Shown in pieces: positions 5,364-22,284 of a stretch of DNA of 37,575 bases. The translations under genes and the position numbers were made by a program. This stretch comes from a virus (lineage: Duplodnaviria; Caudoviricetes). Location of the stretch: IMG/VR virus record IMGVR_UViG_3300017780_004173, positions 1 to 37,575 of that record, one strand, 5' to 3'. The notes beneath the pieces are model-generated. The model had not been told where the DNA came from and made no database searches. It saw nothing but the letters and a program-made list of their open reading frames with translations. How positions within the stretch are numbered: position 1 is the first letter of the stretch; each line of letters starts with the position of its first letter.

Positions 5364-7034
5364 TTACCCTTGGTCTAGGAGCACGCGTTCATCCTGAGTG
5401 AGCCCGCCCATAGCATCTTTCTCTGCTTCTTCCTCGCTAGCGGTCATAATACCTTCCTTCTTACTCCATGCTTTTACGAAGCTATTGATTGCTTGAGCAA
5501 TGGCAAGCTGTCCTTCACCAAGTTCCATTTCAGGTTCCTCTACTACCAATGTCTTTACAGTGATGAGAGAGGACACTACTGAGGTTGCGTGCTCCACTGC
5601 ATAGTACACCGCATCCGTAGGGTCTATTACGTCCTTTCCAATCTTTAGAGCGCCGCCCGAATTATCCTGAATCTGCTTGTGTGGAGCCAAGAGTGCGTTC
5701 TTTAGAATATGAGTATCTGGTAGGGTGTCTGCGATTTCTTTGAGACAAAGTCCTCCGCCCTTCACATACCCACTCTTGAGTGCTGACTTACAGGCGTATA
5801 CACAGTCTTCAATCTTTAATTTAAGTGGGAGTGACTCTGCATCTGTCGGACTCCCTACACGGATTACTCCACCACCTGCGGATAGTGAGGCAATACGACG
5901 CTCTAGGAGCTTCTTGAACTGTGGCTCCTTTGCTTCTTTGAGCTGTCCTTGAAGGACTTTGATTCTGTCCTTTACGGCAGTTGATTTCTCCCCCTTTCCA
6001 CCAAGAGCTACCACGTCCTCACGAGTTTCTACGTCCTTTACAATTATTTTGTCTACGAATCCTACTTCTGTTCCAGTGATTCCCTCTAACTTATGTCCTT
6101 TGTCTTTATCTACGAGAGATGCACCAAAGAATACGGCGAGGTCTTCCATCTGCTCTGTGCGTAGTGATGGTGCCTTGATAGGCCATACAAATGTGGCGTT
6201 TTCGCGTCCAAGCACCATGCTTATGAGCACTTGTTCCGAGAAGTCAGGAGCAATAATAGTGAGTTTAGAGGAGCCAAACTTAGCTACGAGGTAGCGGACG
6301 AGCGCATCATTATCTAGTTTGTAGTTGGTTATGAATACAGGACAATCTTCAATGACCATTTCGTGGCGTTCTGGCTTGTTCACAAATGCTTTGCCACACG
6401 TCTTAGCAGGGAAGCGCATACCCTTAATAAGTTCTGTTTCTACTTCTCCGTTGTATCCCTCTACTACGTCAATGAAACCTTCTACGCCCACTTCATAGGC
6501 CATGTGAGCTATTTTCTTTGAAGTATCGTTATCCTCTCCGAGAGAGATTGCTGAAATCTTCTCCAGGTCTTCAAGAGTCTTTACGGGCTTGGATGCTGTG
6601 CGAATCTTGTCCTTGATGTCTTTTGCGGACTCTAGGATTTCACGACGCATCTCCATAAATCCTTTCTTTTTGGTGTCTCCTGCTGAGTAGCCTTGTGTAC
6701 GGGCTTGGGACTTGGCGTATATGTCATTGAATAGGACTCCTGCAATGATTGTGGTGCCTGTGGTTCCATCCCCCACCTTTTCGTTAGTTTTCTTAGTACC
6801 TTCTTTGAAAAACTCAGCAACGAGCTTTACGAACGGGTTCTTGGGAGTAATTACTTCAGCCGTGTAGTACCCATCATCTACGCAGCGTGGGCCACGGCCA
6901 TAGGAGCGATACATAAGCGTGGTTCCTGCTTCTGGGCCAAATGTGCGACGGACAGGTTCGTAAATAGCATCTACACCCTTCTTGGCGTACGCGAGAGCTT
7001 TGGCATCTAATGCTACGAGTGTTGATTTGGCCAT
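5364..7034 (-). CDS. groL: Phage-encoded group I chaperonin (GroEL-like)
   Basis: 556 aa; TFGP, DDGY, VGDGTTGTTI ATP motif, LERRIASLSAGGGVIRVG, KIEDCVYACKSA, GYVKGGG, VIDPT. Confidence 0.95.
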   Translation of the reverse strand: MAKSTLVALDAKALAYAKKGVDAIYEPVRRTFGPEAGTTLMYRSYGRGPRCVDDGYYTAEVITPKNPFVKLVAEFFKEGTKKTNEKVGDGTTGTTIIAGVLFNDIYAKSQARTQGYSAGDTKKKGFMEMRREILESAKDIKDKIRTASKPVKTLEDLEKISAISLGEDNDTSKKIAHMAYEVGVEGFIDVVEGYNGEVETELIKGMRFPAKTCGKAFVNKPERHEMVIEDCPVFITNYKLDNDALVRYLVAKFGSSKLTIIAPDFSEQVLISMVLGRENATFVWPIKAPSLRTEQMEDLAVFFGASLVDKDKGHKLEGITGTEVGFVDKIIVKDVETREDVVALGGKGEKSTAVKDRIKVLQGQLKEAKEPQFKKLLERRIASLSAGGGVIRVGSPTDAESLPLKLKIEDCVYACKSALKSGYVKGGGLCLKEIADTLPDTHILKNALLAPHKQIQDNSGGALKIGKDVIDPTDAVYYAVEHATSVVSSLITVKTLVVEEPEMELGEGQLAIAQAINSFVKAWSKKEGIMTASEEEAEKDAMGGLTQDERVLLDQG

Positions 7035-7035
7035 A

Positions 7036-7296
7036 CTATTTGGTTTTCTTAGACTTTTTCAAGGGCGCACCGTCAAGACTTGATTCAAATATTTCCCCGC
7101 GATTTGGCTTATCTACGGGAGATGGTGCGGTGTAATCTGAGGCAACACAATGTATTCCGTGGATGTTGCTAGTATGGTCTAGGTTTAAGCGAGCAAGTTC
7201 CTCGATAGTTCCTGTGATTGCTGTTAGTCCCTCTGTGCTCTGTACTGTGTTTTCTAAATCCTCTCGTGTTGCAAAGTCTTTTACGTTTAGTTCCAT
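7036..7296 (-). CDS. Hypothetical protein (MELNVKDF...), not GroES-like
   Basis: Start re-assigned to ATG 7296 behind a structured leader with AGAGGG; stop abuts the groL start. Confidence 0.75.
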   Translation of the reverse strand: MELNVKDFATREDLENTVQSTEGLTAITGTIEELARLNLDHTSNIHGIHCVASDYTAPSPVDKPNRGEIFESSLDGAPLKKSKKTK

Positions 7297-7304
7297 GGTA
7301 GTGA

Positions 7305-7357
7305 CCCTCTGTTCTGCTCGCACTTCATCAGGACGAGCAGAACACAAGGGATGAAGT
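7305..7357 (-). promoter_or_regulatory. Structured 5' leader (switch/pseudoknot), copy 1
   Basis: GTTCTGCTCG/CGAGCAGAAC 10 bp stem; 8 nt of the loop is complementary to the upstream ACTTCATC; same geometry as the copy at 12910-12964. Confidence 0.75.
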
Positions 7358-8834: not shown

Positions 8835-9002
8835 TGTTTACATGCACAGTCTTGGAGGCGAGGATTTGCGGTGGTGGTATTGCGCCACGACGCTAGTTTT
8901 TTACCGTCTAGTCACCTCACATCAGACTTTTGGGGTACTACCCTACCAAGCGGTTATTTATAGTCTACTCTTTCCGCCACTCCAAGACACTACACACAAA
9001 CA
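8835..9002 (-). ncRNA. tRNA-like RNA unit A with interrupted T-loop
   Basis: GTCTTGGAG/CTCCAAGAC closing stem (8849-8988) plus a G-U-rich outer stem; D-arm-like TGGCGGAAAGAGTAGAC; GTGAGG-TGAC...CAAAT-CCTCGC. Confidence 0.7.
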
Positions 9003-9099
9003 GTTCCAGCACTCGGTGTAGCTCACGGGGAGTTAACTGGGTACCACCGAAGTGATACAACAAATCCACGAGCTACACAAAACGCTTGAATACTTCTCT
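9002..9099 (-). ncRNA. Structured RNA unit F
   Basis: GTGTAGCTC/GAGCTACAC stem, internal GTATCAC-TTCG-GTGGTAC hairpin, AGAGAAGTATTCAAGCGTTTT leader. Confidence 0.6.
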
Positions 9100-9113
9100 A
9101 AAACGGCGTACTT

Positions 9114-9146
9114 TACCGGGAATCCTGTTTTTCGCAATTCCCGGTA
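9114..9146. other. Perfect 10 bp hairpin inside the RNA array
   Basis: TACCGGGAAT-13 nt-ATTCCCGGTA. Confidence 0.6.
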
Positions 9147-9150
9147 GAAC

Positions 9151-9277
9151 AGTATTCCAGTGTTCACGTCTATGCTCTTTGACCGATATTTTTGGCAGGG
9201 CTGTTCTCGTAAGAGTAGTAGCCTCGGATTCGGCCTAAGCCCTTTGAGCACAGAAGAAAACACTTGAATACTTCTCT
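9151..9277 (-). ncRNA. Structured RNA unit D
   Basis: AGTATTCAAGTGTT/AACACTGGAATACT and TCTGTGCTC/GAGCATAGA closing stems; same leader as unit F. Confidence 0.6.
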
Positions 9278-9464
9278 TGGAGAGGGGCATTTGGGTGGAT
9301 TCAAGGCGTATACGTTCCTTGTTTCCTCCTAGCGATTTGCAGTCGCTACCGAGCATTATGGCCGTGTCTGTTTACTGGCGGCATCTCGGCGTACATTTTG
9401 ATGAATTCTAGTCAGGGTAATTAGTCCCAACATCAACAGACCCACCCAAATGTCTCCCTCCTAA
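9277..9464 (-). ncRNA. Multibranch RNA unit C
   Basis: ~20 bp closing stem around CATTTGGGTGG/CCACCCAAATG; arms TTGATG/CATCAA, CCGAG/CTCGG, TAGCGA-CTGCAAA-TCGCTA, CAAGG/CCTTG. Confidence 0.65.
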
Positions 9465-9474
9465 AGTAATGTTT

Positions 9475-9700
9475 GTAATGGGGTGCTTTGTTGTCTCGGC
9501 GAGGATTTGACTGAGCCTGCCTTACGGCATTTATGTATTATCACCATCACCTTGCGGCAAATTCTGTAGGCTCCGAATCTGTCACCTCGCATGGATACCA
9601 TTCCTGGCCAGTTCTCTACTTGAGTAGCCCTGCTCCTGATTGTACTGTCATGCGTCTACCTATTCCGCCACGAGACAATAAAACATCCCATTACTTCTCT
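9475..9700 (-). ncRNA. tRNA-like RNA unit B with interrupted T-loop
   Basis: 24 bp closing stem; GTGGCGGAATAGGTAGACGC D-arm; GCGAGG-TGAC...GTCAAAT-CCTCGC; GCAA and GTAA tetraloops in the insert. Confidence 0.75.
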
Positions 9701-9708
9701 TTCTATGT

Positions 9709-9808
9709 GTGAAGTGCAGGAGGGGAAGAACTACAAGGCTTAGTCTTTTCGTGTGTACACACGGTAGTTCTATGTGAATTACATGCCTCACCCCCTCCTA
9801 TTCTCCAC
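9709..9808 (-). ncRNA. Structured RNA unit E
   Basis: AGGAGGGG/CCCCTCCT closing stem, AGAACTAC/GTAGTTCT arm, CGTGTGTACACACG palindrome. Confidence 0.55.
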
Positions 9809-9810
9809 GA

Positions 9811-9890
9811 TTTCAAAGTTCTGCTTCTACTAACAAGTGTACTATGGTTTTTCTTCTGTGAAGGGTATTTTCCGCGAGGGTGTGGACAAC
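9811..9890 (-). promoter_or_regulatory. Promoter and boxA-like site for the RNA array
   Basis: GTTGTCCACA box, TTCACA, 15 nt, TACACT (9836-9841), then GAACTTTGAAA (9811-9821). Confidence 0.5.
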
Positions 9891-10928: not shown

Positions 10929-11435
10929 CTATTCTTTCTCTAGTAGGGCTTTGTATCGGGCTTCTATTTCTAATAATTCTGGCACGCTCCACTTTTTCGG
11001 AGTCCTGAAAAGTAGGTTCAATTCCCCGAGAATATCTCCTCCATATTTCTCTTGAAGAAAGATTGCGTACACGTCAAGCCTTCCCGAGTGGTACCGATTA
11101 CAGGTAGGGCACTGTCCGTGAACATTGCGTTCGTGATACCAGAGCATATTCCCTCCGAGCTGTTGGTTCTTTTTGTCGGAGTTATGGCGGTAGTGCCCTG
11201 CCTCGGTTGTGGGTGCTCCACAAGTGCAACATCTTGGGTCGCGCGTCCTAATGAACTTTGCAAAAGCAGACCATGCTCTTTCTTTAGCCCTGGAAGGCGA
11301 GATTTGCCTCTGTGCGCCTCTTAAATCCGTATACTGCACTGTTCCTGCTTTTGGCTTCTTTTTCACGCTTGAAGGCTTTTTGAACCCCGTCCGCTTCATT
11401 TGGGAAGTTCCTCGTTTTAGCTCGGTGCGTTTCAT
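10929..11435 (-). CDS. ninG: NinG/Rap-like recombination endonuclease
   Basis: FAKFIRTRD..CCTCG..AGHY..ERNVHGQCPTCN motif. Confidence 0.88.
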   Translation of the reverse strand: MKRTELKRGTSQMKRTGFKKPSSVKKKPKAGTVQYTDLRGAQRQISPSRAKERAWSAFAKFIRTRDPRCCTCGAPTTEAGHYRHNSDKKNQQLGGNMLWYHERNVHGQCPTCNRYHSGRLDVYAIFLQEKYGGDILGELNLLFRTPKKWSVPELLEIEARYKALLEKE

Positions 11436-13795: not shown

Positions 13796-14365
13796 ATGTC
13801 AAAAACAGAACGTAGGGTACAAACTACAAAAATAGAGAAGAAATGGACGGACAAGAAAACAGGCGAGAAGAAGTCTATGACTATTGACTACGCAAAAGTC
13901 AAAGACCGCCTGAAAGAGTTTCGTGAGGAATGTGCAAACGGTGATATTGACACTCAAGTTACATTCACAAACGGTAAGGTTCTTGTGAAGGCCGTAATCC
14001 TAAAAGACCGCGCTAAAGCTGATGAAACAGCTCGTGGTACAGGACACGCAGTAGGTGATAGCCAAGACGAAAAGGGGCTAGAAAAGACCGAGACTCTAGC
14101 AGTTGGACGCGCACTTGCAATGCTTGGGTATGGGGCAGACGGCGCAATCGCTTCTAGCGAAGAAATGGAGGAATACGGCGAATACCTAAAAGAGAAAAAG
14201 CAAGAGCTTATCCTGTCTATGACCGAGAGGCTGGACGGAGTAAAGAGCCTAGAGGAACTAAAGACCGCGTGGGCCGAAGTACCAGCAGAAGTGAAGAAAG
14301 ACCTTGAAACCAAGAAGGACGAGATGAAAGCAATACTTACCAGCGTAGCGAGTGAAGCCCTATGA
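13796..14365 (+). CDS. Putative single-strand annealing protein (Rad52/Sak-like)
   Basis: YAKVKDRL..F, TGHA, EKTETLAVGRALAMLG; adjacent to exonuclease and SSB; start re-assigned to MSKT. Confidence 0.7.
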   Translation: MSKTERRVQTTKIEKKWTDKKTGEKKSMTIDYAKVKDRLKEFREECANGDIDTQVTFTNGKVLVKAVILKDRAKADETARGTGHAVGDSQDEKGLEKTETLAVGRALAMLGYGADGAIASSEEMEEYGEYLKEKKQELILSMTERLDGVKSLEELKTAWAEVPAEVKKDLETKKDEMKAILTSVASEAL

Positions 14366-14970
14366 TTACCACCAAGTACGATAGCCGAGAAGAATGGCTA
14401 GACGCCCGTAAGGGCAAGATTACAGGCTCACGCTTGAAGGATATTGTGGTAAAGCGTGGGACGGGCAAGAAAATAGGCTTTTACGAGATAATTGCCGAGC
14501 GTCTTGCTATTGAGGAGGACGGAAACGAAAGCCCAATGGATAGGGGTACACGCCTTGAAGCAGAGTGTATGGCTAAGTTTCAAGAGGAGACGGGTAAGGA
14601 GCTCGATACTTCGCTAGTTATTTGGGCTAGAGAGGAGAACGAGAACATCGCTATCTCACCAGATGCGTCAGTACTAGGTGAGAGCGCAGCAGTAGAGGGT
14701 AAGTGCTTATCGTCAGCTCGCCACATTGAAGCGTATCTCACCCAGCAAGTACCAGACGAGTACGAGTACCAGAAGATACAATACTTTGCGGTAAACGGCG
14801 CACTTGAACGGCTTTACTTTGCCTTCTATGACCCGCGTCTAACATATAAGTCATTCTTCTATCTCACGATTGAGCGTGCAGATGTGGAGAAGGAAGTGGA
14901 GGAAATGCTGGCGTACCAGAAGAACGTGCTGGAGGAAGTGGAGGAAATTGTTACAAGACTAAGTTTCTAA
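14362..14970 (+). CDS. YqaJ / lambda-exonuclease family nuclease
   Basis: EWLDARKGKITGS, MDRGTRLE, SPDA, EGKC, YQKIQY. Confidence 0.9.
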   Translation: MITTKYDSREEWLDARKGKITGSRLKDIVVKRGTGKKIGFYEIIAERLAIEEDGNESPMDRGTRLEAECMAKFQEETGKELDTSLVIWAREENENIAISPDASVLGESAAVEGKCLSSARHIEAYLTQQVPDEYEYQKIQYFAVNGALERLYFAFYDPRLTYKSFFYLTIERADVEKEVEEMLAYQKNVLEEVEEIVTRLSF

Positions 14971-16074: not shown

Positions 16075-16332
16075 ATGGCAAAGAAGACCCAAAAGGATAT
16101 AGTCCTACTGAAACTAAGAGAAGATGGAGAGATTACCAACATATACGCTTTTGAGCACCATATGCTACGTCTCGGTGCAATCATTCACAGCTTGCGTGCA
16201 GATGGCTTGGAGAGAGAGGGAAGCTACATAGAGGGGACTAAGAACTTCCAGTATCGCTGGGTGAACCGACCAAAGAGAATCGTGCGCTGGGAGCAGTTGG
16301 AGAACAACACAGTACGCCCTGTCTATGAGTAA
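16075..16332 (+). CDS. Winged-helix DNA-binding protein
   Basis: TQKDIVL..L..GEIT...A......RLGAIIHSLRADG; start re-assigned to ATG 16075. Confidence 0.75.
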   Translation: MAKKTQKDIVLLKLREDGEITNIYAFEHHMLRLGAIIHSLRADGLEREGSYIEGTKNFQYRWVNRPKRIVRWEQLENNTVRPVYE

Positions 16333-16756
16333 GAAGTTTGACCGTCTCCTGCACCGTGGGCGTATTAAGGACGGCCAGCTTGTACTAGACAATGGCAGGT
16401 GGTGGAAAGGAATGTTGCAGCTCTTTGAGGACACCGAGGTGACTATTCTGGTGGAGCGTAGAAAGAACAAACGAAGTACCAACCAAAACGCATACCTGTG
16501 GGGGGTAGTGTACTACTACATCGCAGAACACACAGGCTTTCTACCAGAGGAAGTACACGAATGCCTACGCTCCAAGTTCCTACGGCACAAGCGGGTATGG
16601 CGGGGTATGGAGCTGACGGTGCTCAAAAGCACAACTCAACTTACTCACGAGGAGTTTGGTGAGTACATAGAACAGTGCATACGGGAGGCTACGGACTTGG
16701 GAATTGAGATACCACCGCCAACTACTGAAATGGATAAGGTAATGGCTACGATTTAG
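16325..16756 (+). CDS. NinB-like recombination accessory protein
   Basis: RSTNQNAYLWG, EVHE.L, STTQLT..EF..YIE. Confidence 0.7.
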   Translation: MSKKFDRLLHRGRIKDGQLVLDNGRWWKGMLQLFEDTEVTILVERRKNKRSTNQNAYLWGVVYYYIAEHTGFLPEEVHECLRSKFLRHKRVWRGMELTVLKSTTQLTHEEFGEYIEQCIREATDLGIEIPPPTTEMDKVMATI

Positions 16757-20869: not shown

Positions 20870-20983
20870 ATGACTAAGAACGTGAACCACGAGTGCAGAT
20901 GCCCTTGTATTGAGAAAGACCCACAAAGACCGTGTGGACATTGTTCCGCCTACTGTAGACCTTACGAAGCACCAACTAAGTAA
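20870..20983 (+). CDS. Cys-rich microprotein (37 aa, MTKNVNHECRCPC...)
   Basis: ATG start within track ORF 20780-20983; ends in the shared EAPTK block. Confidence 0.65.
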   Translation: MTKNVNHECRCPCIEKDPQRPCGHCSAYCRPYEAPTK

Positions 20984-22227: not shown

Positions 22228-22284
22228 ATTATACCGCACACTATCCCCTTTCTTTTGTTTCCACCTGTGGACAGGTGCTATCAT
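22228..22284. promoter_or_regulatory. Divergent promoters with a central palindrome
   Basis: Minus TATAAT, plus TGc-TATCAT (22279-22284), CACCTGT-GG-ACAGGTG at 22262-22277. Confidence 0.55.

Follow-up and report, generated by a model that had tools for sequence, protein, structure and literature searches.

Stable tRNA-like RNAs are known from the phages T5 and T4. In the T5 region (NC_005859), such RNAs are annotated as 'tRNA-like stable RNA with unknown functions', and an excerpt of PMC9697503 refers to RNA C and RNA D of T4 as 'RNAs of yet unknown functions'. Module exchange at conserved sites has been described as well: according to an excerpt of PMC2839356, the PeSLs of T4-type phages are conserved short cassettes that serve as recombination points at which non-essential modules are shuffled. 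Two further groups of RNAs are relevant here, namely, YrlA, whose tRNA-like domain includes D and T arms and which also occurs in phages and is encoded beside Ro60 (PMC4201824, excerpt), and the allo-tRNAs and tRNA-Sec, which combine acceptor/T-stem geometries of 8/4, 9/3, 8/5 or 9/4 with anticodon arms (PMC5389517 and PMC7609411, excerpts).

Here, we analyse an RNA array in a 37.6-kb tailed-phage record (the whole stretch is referred to as the window), in which a fixed scaffold of base-paired stalks encloses cargoes that turn over between related phages. Short ORFs are found among the cargoes, one cassette occupies two different slots, and two cargoes of the window, units A and B, have a fold with a 7-bp acceptor and a 6-bp T stem (7/6). 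A previous sequence-only reading, which considered the locus a candidate for an undescribed system of small RNAs cut from one precursor, missed three points: conservation resides in the stalks, and the units inside them are exchangeable cargo; A and B are paralogues that belong to a very large family of tRNA-Leu-derived RNAs; and stable tRNA-like RNAs were already on record in T5 and T4.

By eye, T5 RNA1 resembles A and B in its Leu-type D arm, acceptor helix and T arm and in that a long hairpin replaces the anticodon arm; however, its geometry is 7/5, its T loop is canonical and it has a variable arm. In the 7/6 family, by contrast, the T stem is 6 bp rather than 5 bp long, G55 is present, the T loop may carry an insert and a fixed variable arm is missing. 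T5 RNAIII and RNAIV are, like units D, E and F, stem-closed branched RNAs, and the T5 tRNA region is, like the array, an RNA cluster mixed with small ORFs, but the T5 units sit among true tRNAs and fixed enclosing stalks are not annotated there. T4 RNA C, which is expressed as a stable RNA in a tRNA cluster and has an unrelated body framed by an acceptor-like helix and a T arm, is a looser analogue than T5 RNA1, given that it is without a Leu-type D arm, has a 5-bp T stem and is not part of a slot scaffold. From the comparison with RNA1 and RNA C, tRNA-like stable RNAs of this kind are thus already known.

The rRNA operons resemble the array in having a boxA-like leader and long stalks that contain single mismatches, but their rRNA cargo is fixed. 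The early RNase III sites of T7 are local intergenic hairpins, with no gene enclosed by them. As in PeSLs, modules of the array are exchanged at conserved cassettes; yet a PeSL, as characterized in the excerpt of PMC2839356, is a promoter plus terminator between genes, whereas a single promoter would serve all slots of the array, and each linker contributes one arm to each of two stalks, whose arms pair across the cargo. The promoter and terminator scan listed neither signal inside 8835-9890. YrlA is permuted according to the excerpt of PMC4201824, its acceptor being an internal hairpin, whereas all aligned members of the 7/6 family are in normal order; Ro60 had no match among 54 ORFs (PHROGs) or 18 ORFs (Pfam). 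The allo-tRNAs and tRNA-Sec, as presented in the excerpts of PMC5389517 and PMC7609411, likewise have an altered acceptor/T geometry, and some non-translating forms lie in polycistrons near toxin-antitoxin genes; these excerpts describe no 7/6 form, and the family has neither an 8/4 nor a 9/3 branch. A CRISPR-like array was rejected, the sole repeat family in the array being 21 nt long, with three copies at irregular spacings of 178 and 423. In the open-access literature searched, we found no description of a fixed-slot array or of the 7/6 family. The 8495 candidate RNAs reported from the same viral collection in an excerpt of PMC10690425 may include the family, unnamed.

Organization of the array

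PHROG matches in the window comprise a terminase, GroEL, DnaC/DnaD-like loaders, NinG, NinB and a RecE-like exonuclease. The array lies on the minus strand, with the replication genes on one side and GroEL and the terminase on the other, and is covered without differences by the likely source run. All six stem-enclosed units proposed from the letters alone were recovered as inverted repeats, as was the free hairpin between slots D and F (Table 1). For unit F, 2 of 200 shuffles folded equally well. The minus orientation, previously argued from tetraloops, is independently supported by the tRNA-derived arms of A and B and by the ORF cargoes of relatives, all of which read on this strand. The tetraloops, the -10-like hexamer TACACT and the boxA-like 11-mer are indeed present in the sequence; however, the promoter scan did not list the hexamer, because it has no canonical -35 at 16-18 nt.

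Table 1. Features of the array and candidate genes for cargo exchange in the window. Fold z-scores refer to the minus strand against 200 dinucleotide shuffles and are optimistic, because unit boundaries were picked after inspection. L030, L045 and L046 are loci used for comparison.
Feature	Position	Strand	Evidence and content	Inverted-repeat arms	Fold z
-10-like hexamer, likely array promoter	9836-9841	-	sequence; similar hexamer at the same leader distance in L030/L045
Conserved leader with boxA-like element (9811-9821)	9811-9827	-	92% identical to L045
Slot E	9709-9808	-	stalk arms 9792-9808 and 9709-9725; cargo 9726-9791, small branched RNA	9709-9725/9792-9808	-4.59
Slot B	9475-9694	-	stalk arms 9680-9694 and 9475-9489; cargo 9490-9679	9475-9505/9664-9694	-4.24
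Unit B core, tRNA-Leu-derived RNA	9491-9677	-	7-bp acceptor, Leu-type D arm, 6-bp T stem
Slot C	9277-9464	-	stalk and 158-nt cargo (9294-9451)	9267-9298/9442-9473	-3.25
Slot D	9151-9272	-	14-bp stalk with one mismatch; cargo 9165-9256	9146-9177/9246-9277	-5.24
Free 11-bp hairpin between slots D and F	9114-9146	-	fold; absent from L045 and L046		-3.72
Slot F	9002-9094	-	stalk is a duplicate of the slot D stalk (repeat family D1); cargo 9014-9078	9004-9024/9070-9090	-2.78
Slot A	8835-9002	-	stalk arms 8989-9001 and 8836-8847; cargo 8848-8988	8835-8864/8973-9002	-3.42
Unit A core, second tRNA-Leu-derived 7/6 member	8850-8986	-	44-nt T-loop insert; repeats D2, D3
NinG/Rap	10929-11435		PHROG match
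RecE-like exonuclease	14362-14970	+	PHROG match
NinB	16325-16756		PHROG match

The units had been held not to be canonical tRNAs, in agreement with which ARAGORN predicts no gene in the array. Rfam yields no match to the array at the gathering score and, at E-values up to 10, only three matches at chance level; GOLLD, raiA, 6S, RNase P, group I and group II introns and C4 gave no match. The view that the stretch is non-coding holds in the window and needs qualification beyond it. A 107-codon minus-strand ORF overlapping the array at 9033-9356 has no PHROG or Pfam match, is absent from related phages and, not being conserved, was rejected as a coding region, but the slots of relatives can hold protein genes.

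In the core of unit B, about 60 nt replace the anticodon and variable arms, and the T loop carries a 73-nt insert. The cargo of slot C includes a hairpin (9330-9348) with a 7-nt loop, which we take to resemble a Cys anticodon loop. Unit C (9294-9451) is closed by a 6-bp T-stem-like helix and may be a rearranged tRNA mimic. The cargoes of D and B are partly complementary, with eight perfect pairs between 9195-9211 and 9617-9633 of the window.

Conserved linkers and exchanged cargoes

A stalk-pattern search recovered the scaffold, with the linkers in the same order, in three other phage contigs, two of them viral (L045, the most complete of the related arrays, and L046) and one from a metagenome (L131). 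Of the four arrays, counting that of the window, two are cut off by contig ends. All six linkers compared between the window and L045 are 85-100% identical and all three compared with L046 are 89-100% identical, whereas all five cargoes compared between the window and L045 are no more similar than shuffled sequences (14-73 of 100 shuffles as good). Two cargo comparisons are borderline, namely, B versus L046 (5/100 shuffles as good) and E versus L131 (4/100), and the cargo of slot F is 68% identical to the last cargo of L046 (0/100). Every foreign cargo prolongs the stalk helix. Stalk sequences vary from slot to slot; that of slot D has no covariation of its own, because it is nearly invariant in three arrays.

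Across the arrays, the cargoes are branched RNAs, tRNA-like RNAs and short ORFs. Slot E holds other sequence in L045, L131 and the sequencing run X4 and an ORF cassette in L046. In slot B, L045 has an unrelated RNA, and L046 and L131 each have an ORF cassette. The cargo of slot C is near-identical in runs X2 and X3 but different in L045, and in L046 this slot contains a different tRNA-like RNA. That of slot D is replaced by 72 other letters in X3 and differs in L045 and L046, and the stalk of slot A is found unchanged around unrelated cargo in L045, X2 and X3. The ORFs of L046, which encode 108 aa in slot E and 117 aa in slot B, show that ORFs can be cargo, and the cassette with the 108-aa ORF recurs, 93% identical, in slot B of L131, an upstream slot of which holds a 7/6 family member. 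Furthermore, contigs from four other runs (three studies) depart from the window sequence at the slot edges 9168/9256, 9785 and 8841 and also switch inside unit B, at the T-arm borders 9509 and 9593; these contigs are short pieces from related phages, and joint sides of 20-21 nt were flagged as weak.

A search for relatives by GroEL found none. Among 80 terminase loci, the scaffold occurs in none and a family member in two. Chance matches (5/7, 3/5 and 2/5) were dropped from the pattern searches, and L129, which lies inside the window, and L130, which repeats L032, were omitted from the counts. Covariation, by which the units were to be judged, proved strong for A and B (see below), whereas the cargoes of C, D and E yielded no set of homologues.

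The cargo ORFs have six homologues; they gave no Pfam or atlas match and were not found in the 401 Patescibacteria genomes searched. A distant relative found in L313 likewise has its own enclosing stem, preceded by a boxA-like site, and this protein and the cargo ORFs of L046 are candidate counter-defence proteins. The two small ORFs of L046 (L046:3056-3409 and L046:3502-3828) are paralogous, with 27% identity and common cassette arms. Several adjacent stem-closed units around a family member were also seen in the phage-like loci L138, L021, L004, L016 and L133, which may be independent arrays with other scaffolds.

A large family of tRNA-Leu-derived RNAs

Units A and B are paralogues with three repeat families in common. 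The hallmarks of the family to which they belong are a covarying 7-bp acceptor, a 6-bp T stem and G55, with no conserved anticodon arm and CCA rarely encoded. A pattern built from the T-arm flanks of A and B alone matched 29 viral stretches, 25 of which pass a strict filter for the D arm and closing helix, whereas two are variants recognized by eye and two are chance matches. The same pattern gave 19 matches in GTDB (16 real, 3 by chance), and eight of the real ones are titled Patescibacteria. In an alignment of 39 members, 91% of the cells pair, compared to 40-51% in slid controls, and the covariation score is 0.495 versus 0.135, with 0/500 shuffles as high. Counted from U8, acceptor pairs 1-7 are formed in 39, 39, 39, 39, 39, 38 and 37 members, with heavy compensatory change, and pairing then falls to 30, 28 and 24; the drop past pair 7 is the unbiased part of this result, because the filter demanded five of the first six pairs. 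The 6-bp T stem is paired in 98.7% of the cells.

The form without a T-loop insert is far commoner, with approximately 1500 viral stretches estimated and 95 of 121 examined matches passing. Pooling yields at least 143 distinct and 123 non-redundant members, these counts being pattern-based lower bounds biased toward the consensus; the T-loop insert is present in 29 of the 123, A and B included. Acceptor pairing is found at position 7 in 110/123 members and at position 8 in 80/123, A73 in 73/123 and an encoded CCA in 3/123. The central domain between the D and T arms ranges from 8 to 232 nt and is unalignable. D-loop inserts of 20-55 nt were observed in L157, L168, L205, L206, L225, L235 and L245.

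The derivation from tRNA-Leu is indicated by the D arm, since all 30 host matches of the D-arm pattern are tRNA-Leu genes. This Leu-type D arm comes with a core of U8, A14, A15 and U48, the last of which is present in 27/27 real matches of a pattern that did not require it. Host tRNAs are 7/5, whereas the family is 7/6 with G55. A canonical tRNA-Leu was rejected: the D-arm core is there, but a 6-bp T stem, G55 and inserts take the place of the 7/5 branch and canonical T loop, and an anticodon arm with a 7-nt loop is lacking (no ARAGORN call; unalignable central domain). An intron-containing tRNA fares no better, given that Rfam finds no intron, the would-be bulge-helix-bulge helix is without compensatory change and the 94 members without a T insert still have no conserved anticodon arm. 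ARAGORN calls neither A or B nor the element in L001-L029, and Rfam at the gathering score, applied to the window and 74 loci, matched the element only in L039 (tRNA model, 40 bits), a variant with a canonical 5-bp T arm.

Unannotated members were identified in SPP1 (L271:690-820) and phi3T (L272:700-835), as well as in phages of Listeria and Weissella. The SPP1 member is located between genes 9 and 11, where the annotation has gene 10, a doubtful gene on the opposite strand. Family members often adjoin tRNAs, ROOL, rliG or rli62; in L216, for instance, a ROOL RNA (L216:10-591) lies directly upstream. The Listeria prophage sRNAs rliG and rli62 adjoin members, and the excerpts of PMC7397523 and PMC6786865 do not link the element to any named sRNA.

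In Patescibacteria-type MAGs, the 7/6 RNA is found directly behind a tyrosine-recombinase gene, which lies ~250 nt upstream of the match (L132, L134, L139, L142, L143, L145, L146, L148, L149 and L150), and is possibly the cargo of a small integrative element. L150 has an apparent rolling-circle Rep gene upstream, and a DUF3800-V RNA is located just downstream of the 7/6 RNA in L132, L143 and L015.

Leader sequence and probable host

The 9-mer of the array leader lies just behind the promoter in all three Patescibacteria 16S leaders first read. With at most one mismatch, it is present in 13 of 33 such leaders, those three included, against 3.3 expected, bearing out the boxA-like element that had been noticed in the array. 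The site is not general for the 7/6 family (3/33 and 2/89). The 16S stalks of Patescibacteria are helices of 14-29 bp with single mismatches, like the phage stalks, and RNase III is encoded in 147/151 such genomes; judging by sequence, both stalk geometry and host enzyme appear compatible with an operon processed by RNase III. The replication initiator of the phage matched 3/401 Patescibacteria genomes (59% at best), and the two prophage-like host regions read contain no array. On these sequence grounds, Patescibacteria are the probable hosts.

Proposed function and alternatives

We propose that the region is a payload bay, in which fixed base-paired stalks enclose cargo that varies between related phages. 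As a whole, this explanation is moderately probable; that the array is a processed operon with exchangeable cargo is quite likely. A single transcript would start from the -10-like hexamer, with read-through predicted to depend on host Nus/boxA antitermination, and host RNase III would cut each stalk, as at rRNA stalks, to give separate, end-protected RNAs. Cargo might be exchanged by phage Red-like recombination at the 25-46-nt linkers, for which the RecE-like exonuclease, NinB and NinG/Rap are candidate machinery, and slot changes may occur through short shared ends.

Within the payload bay, A and B would be non-decoding tRNA-Leu look-alikes that occupy host enzymes attacking or modifying tRNA, such as tRNA-targeting defence toxins. 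According to an excerpt of PMC5389517, the branch read by EF-Tu measures 12 bp and that of tRNA-Sec 13 bp; the 13-bp acceptor/T branch of A and B would keep both off EF-Tu and the ribosome. A decoy is favoured for A and B because the core persists almost payload-free and because this branch should avoid EF-Tu. Taken on its own, however, the decoy role is tentative and falls somewhat short of even chances. With a T-loop insert, as in A and B, the T loop is interrupted and the tRNA elbow should be disrupted; this makes strict mimicry less plausible and argues that a normal elbow is not needed. In the most far-reaching version of the proposal, which appears doubtful in its entirety, the array is an rRNA-style operon with stalks as standard sockets, in which phages swap counter-defence modules, both small RNAs and small proteins, one slot at a time, the commonest of them being a widespread tRNA-Leu decoy with a 13-bp branch directed against tRNA-targeting immunity.

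Alternatively, the tRNA-like core might be a natural tRNA scaffold, matured and stabilized by host tRNA enzymes, and the active part would be the variable payload, that is, the 8-232-nt domain or the T-loop insert acting as an aptamer, antisense or guide RNA against host targets. This would account for a conserved core combined with central domains unrelated in length and sequence, for the insertions tolerated in both the D and T loops and at the anticodon position, and for the separate exchange of the two variable domains of unit B in other runs. Nevertheless, it is rather unlikely: one member has only 8 nt between the D and T arms and is nearly payload-free, so that the core alone has been kept, and complementarity of the cargoes to the phage's own genome is at chance level (14 nt at best; 6/100 shuffles as long). 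The latter result also led us to reject antisense targeting of the phage's own genes.

The tRNA-like units could also be processing punctuation, providing sites for RNase P and RNase Z through which phage transcripts are cut or stabilized, with no role as free RNAs. Such a role is consistent with the positions of members in SPP1, phi3T and a tyrosine-recombinase element, which lie between genes or follow them, and with a 7-bp acceptor that is kept more strictly than the outer stalk, but it is decidedly unlikely for A and B, which are sealed in their own stalks and exchanged like other cargo. Moreover, for RNase P, an interrupted T loop and a 13-bp branch are unfavourable features.

Sharp switches of cargo at the stalk edges, one cassette in two slots and a short end motif common to several slots are what would be expected if the stalks acted as DNA, being inverted-repeat ends or attachment sites of integron-like site-specific cassettes, with RNA folding as a by-product. 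Direct linkage to a tyrosine-recombinase gene in 10 of the 16 real GTDB members points in the same direction, but these ten copies are close relatives and represent roughly one event. No integrase, and none of the IntI type, was found among the 54 window ORFs scanned (PHROGs), the stalks differ between slots without a repeated attC, and the cargoes fold as RNA, with G-U pairs and the bases of the tRNA tertiary core. We rejected an integron cassette array, and the DNA explanation as such is very improbable. Finally, the notion that the units are functionless, decayed tRNA genes and terminators fits the lack of a homologue set for most cargoes but has negligible likelihood and is largely refuted for A, B and the scaffold, in view of the compensatory change across 39 sequences, the approximately 1500 stretches estimated for the plain T arm and the retention of linkers while cargo turns over.

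For the stable tRNA-like RNAs of T4 and T5, which are still annotated with an unknown function, more than 100 covarying relatives are now available, and the unannotated copies in SPP1 and phi3T make function testable by deletion of the unit in Bacillus subtilis. The slot-and-cargo array marks those RNAs and small proteins that a phage lineage treats as exchangeable payload, offering a search handle for RNA-based counter-defence, and represents a natural design for obtaining several end-protected RNAs from one promoter.

Two minor observations concern the surroundings of the array. The phage-encoded GroEL (5364-7034) is directly preceded by a 103-aa ORF (7036-7347) without a family match, which could be its co-chaperonin. 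In addition, an 8-mer, which we take to resemble a DnaA box, is present in three copies on the minus strand of the window (9880-9888, 20933-20940 and 22266-22273), the first of which lies just upstream of the array promoter, as does its counterpart in L131.
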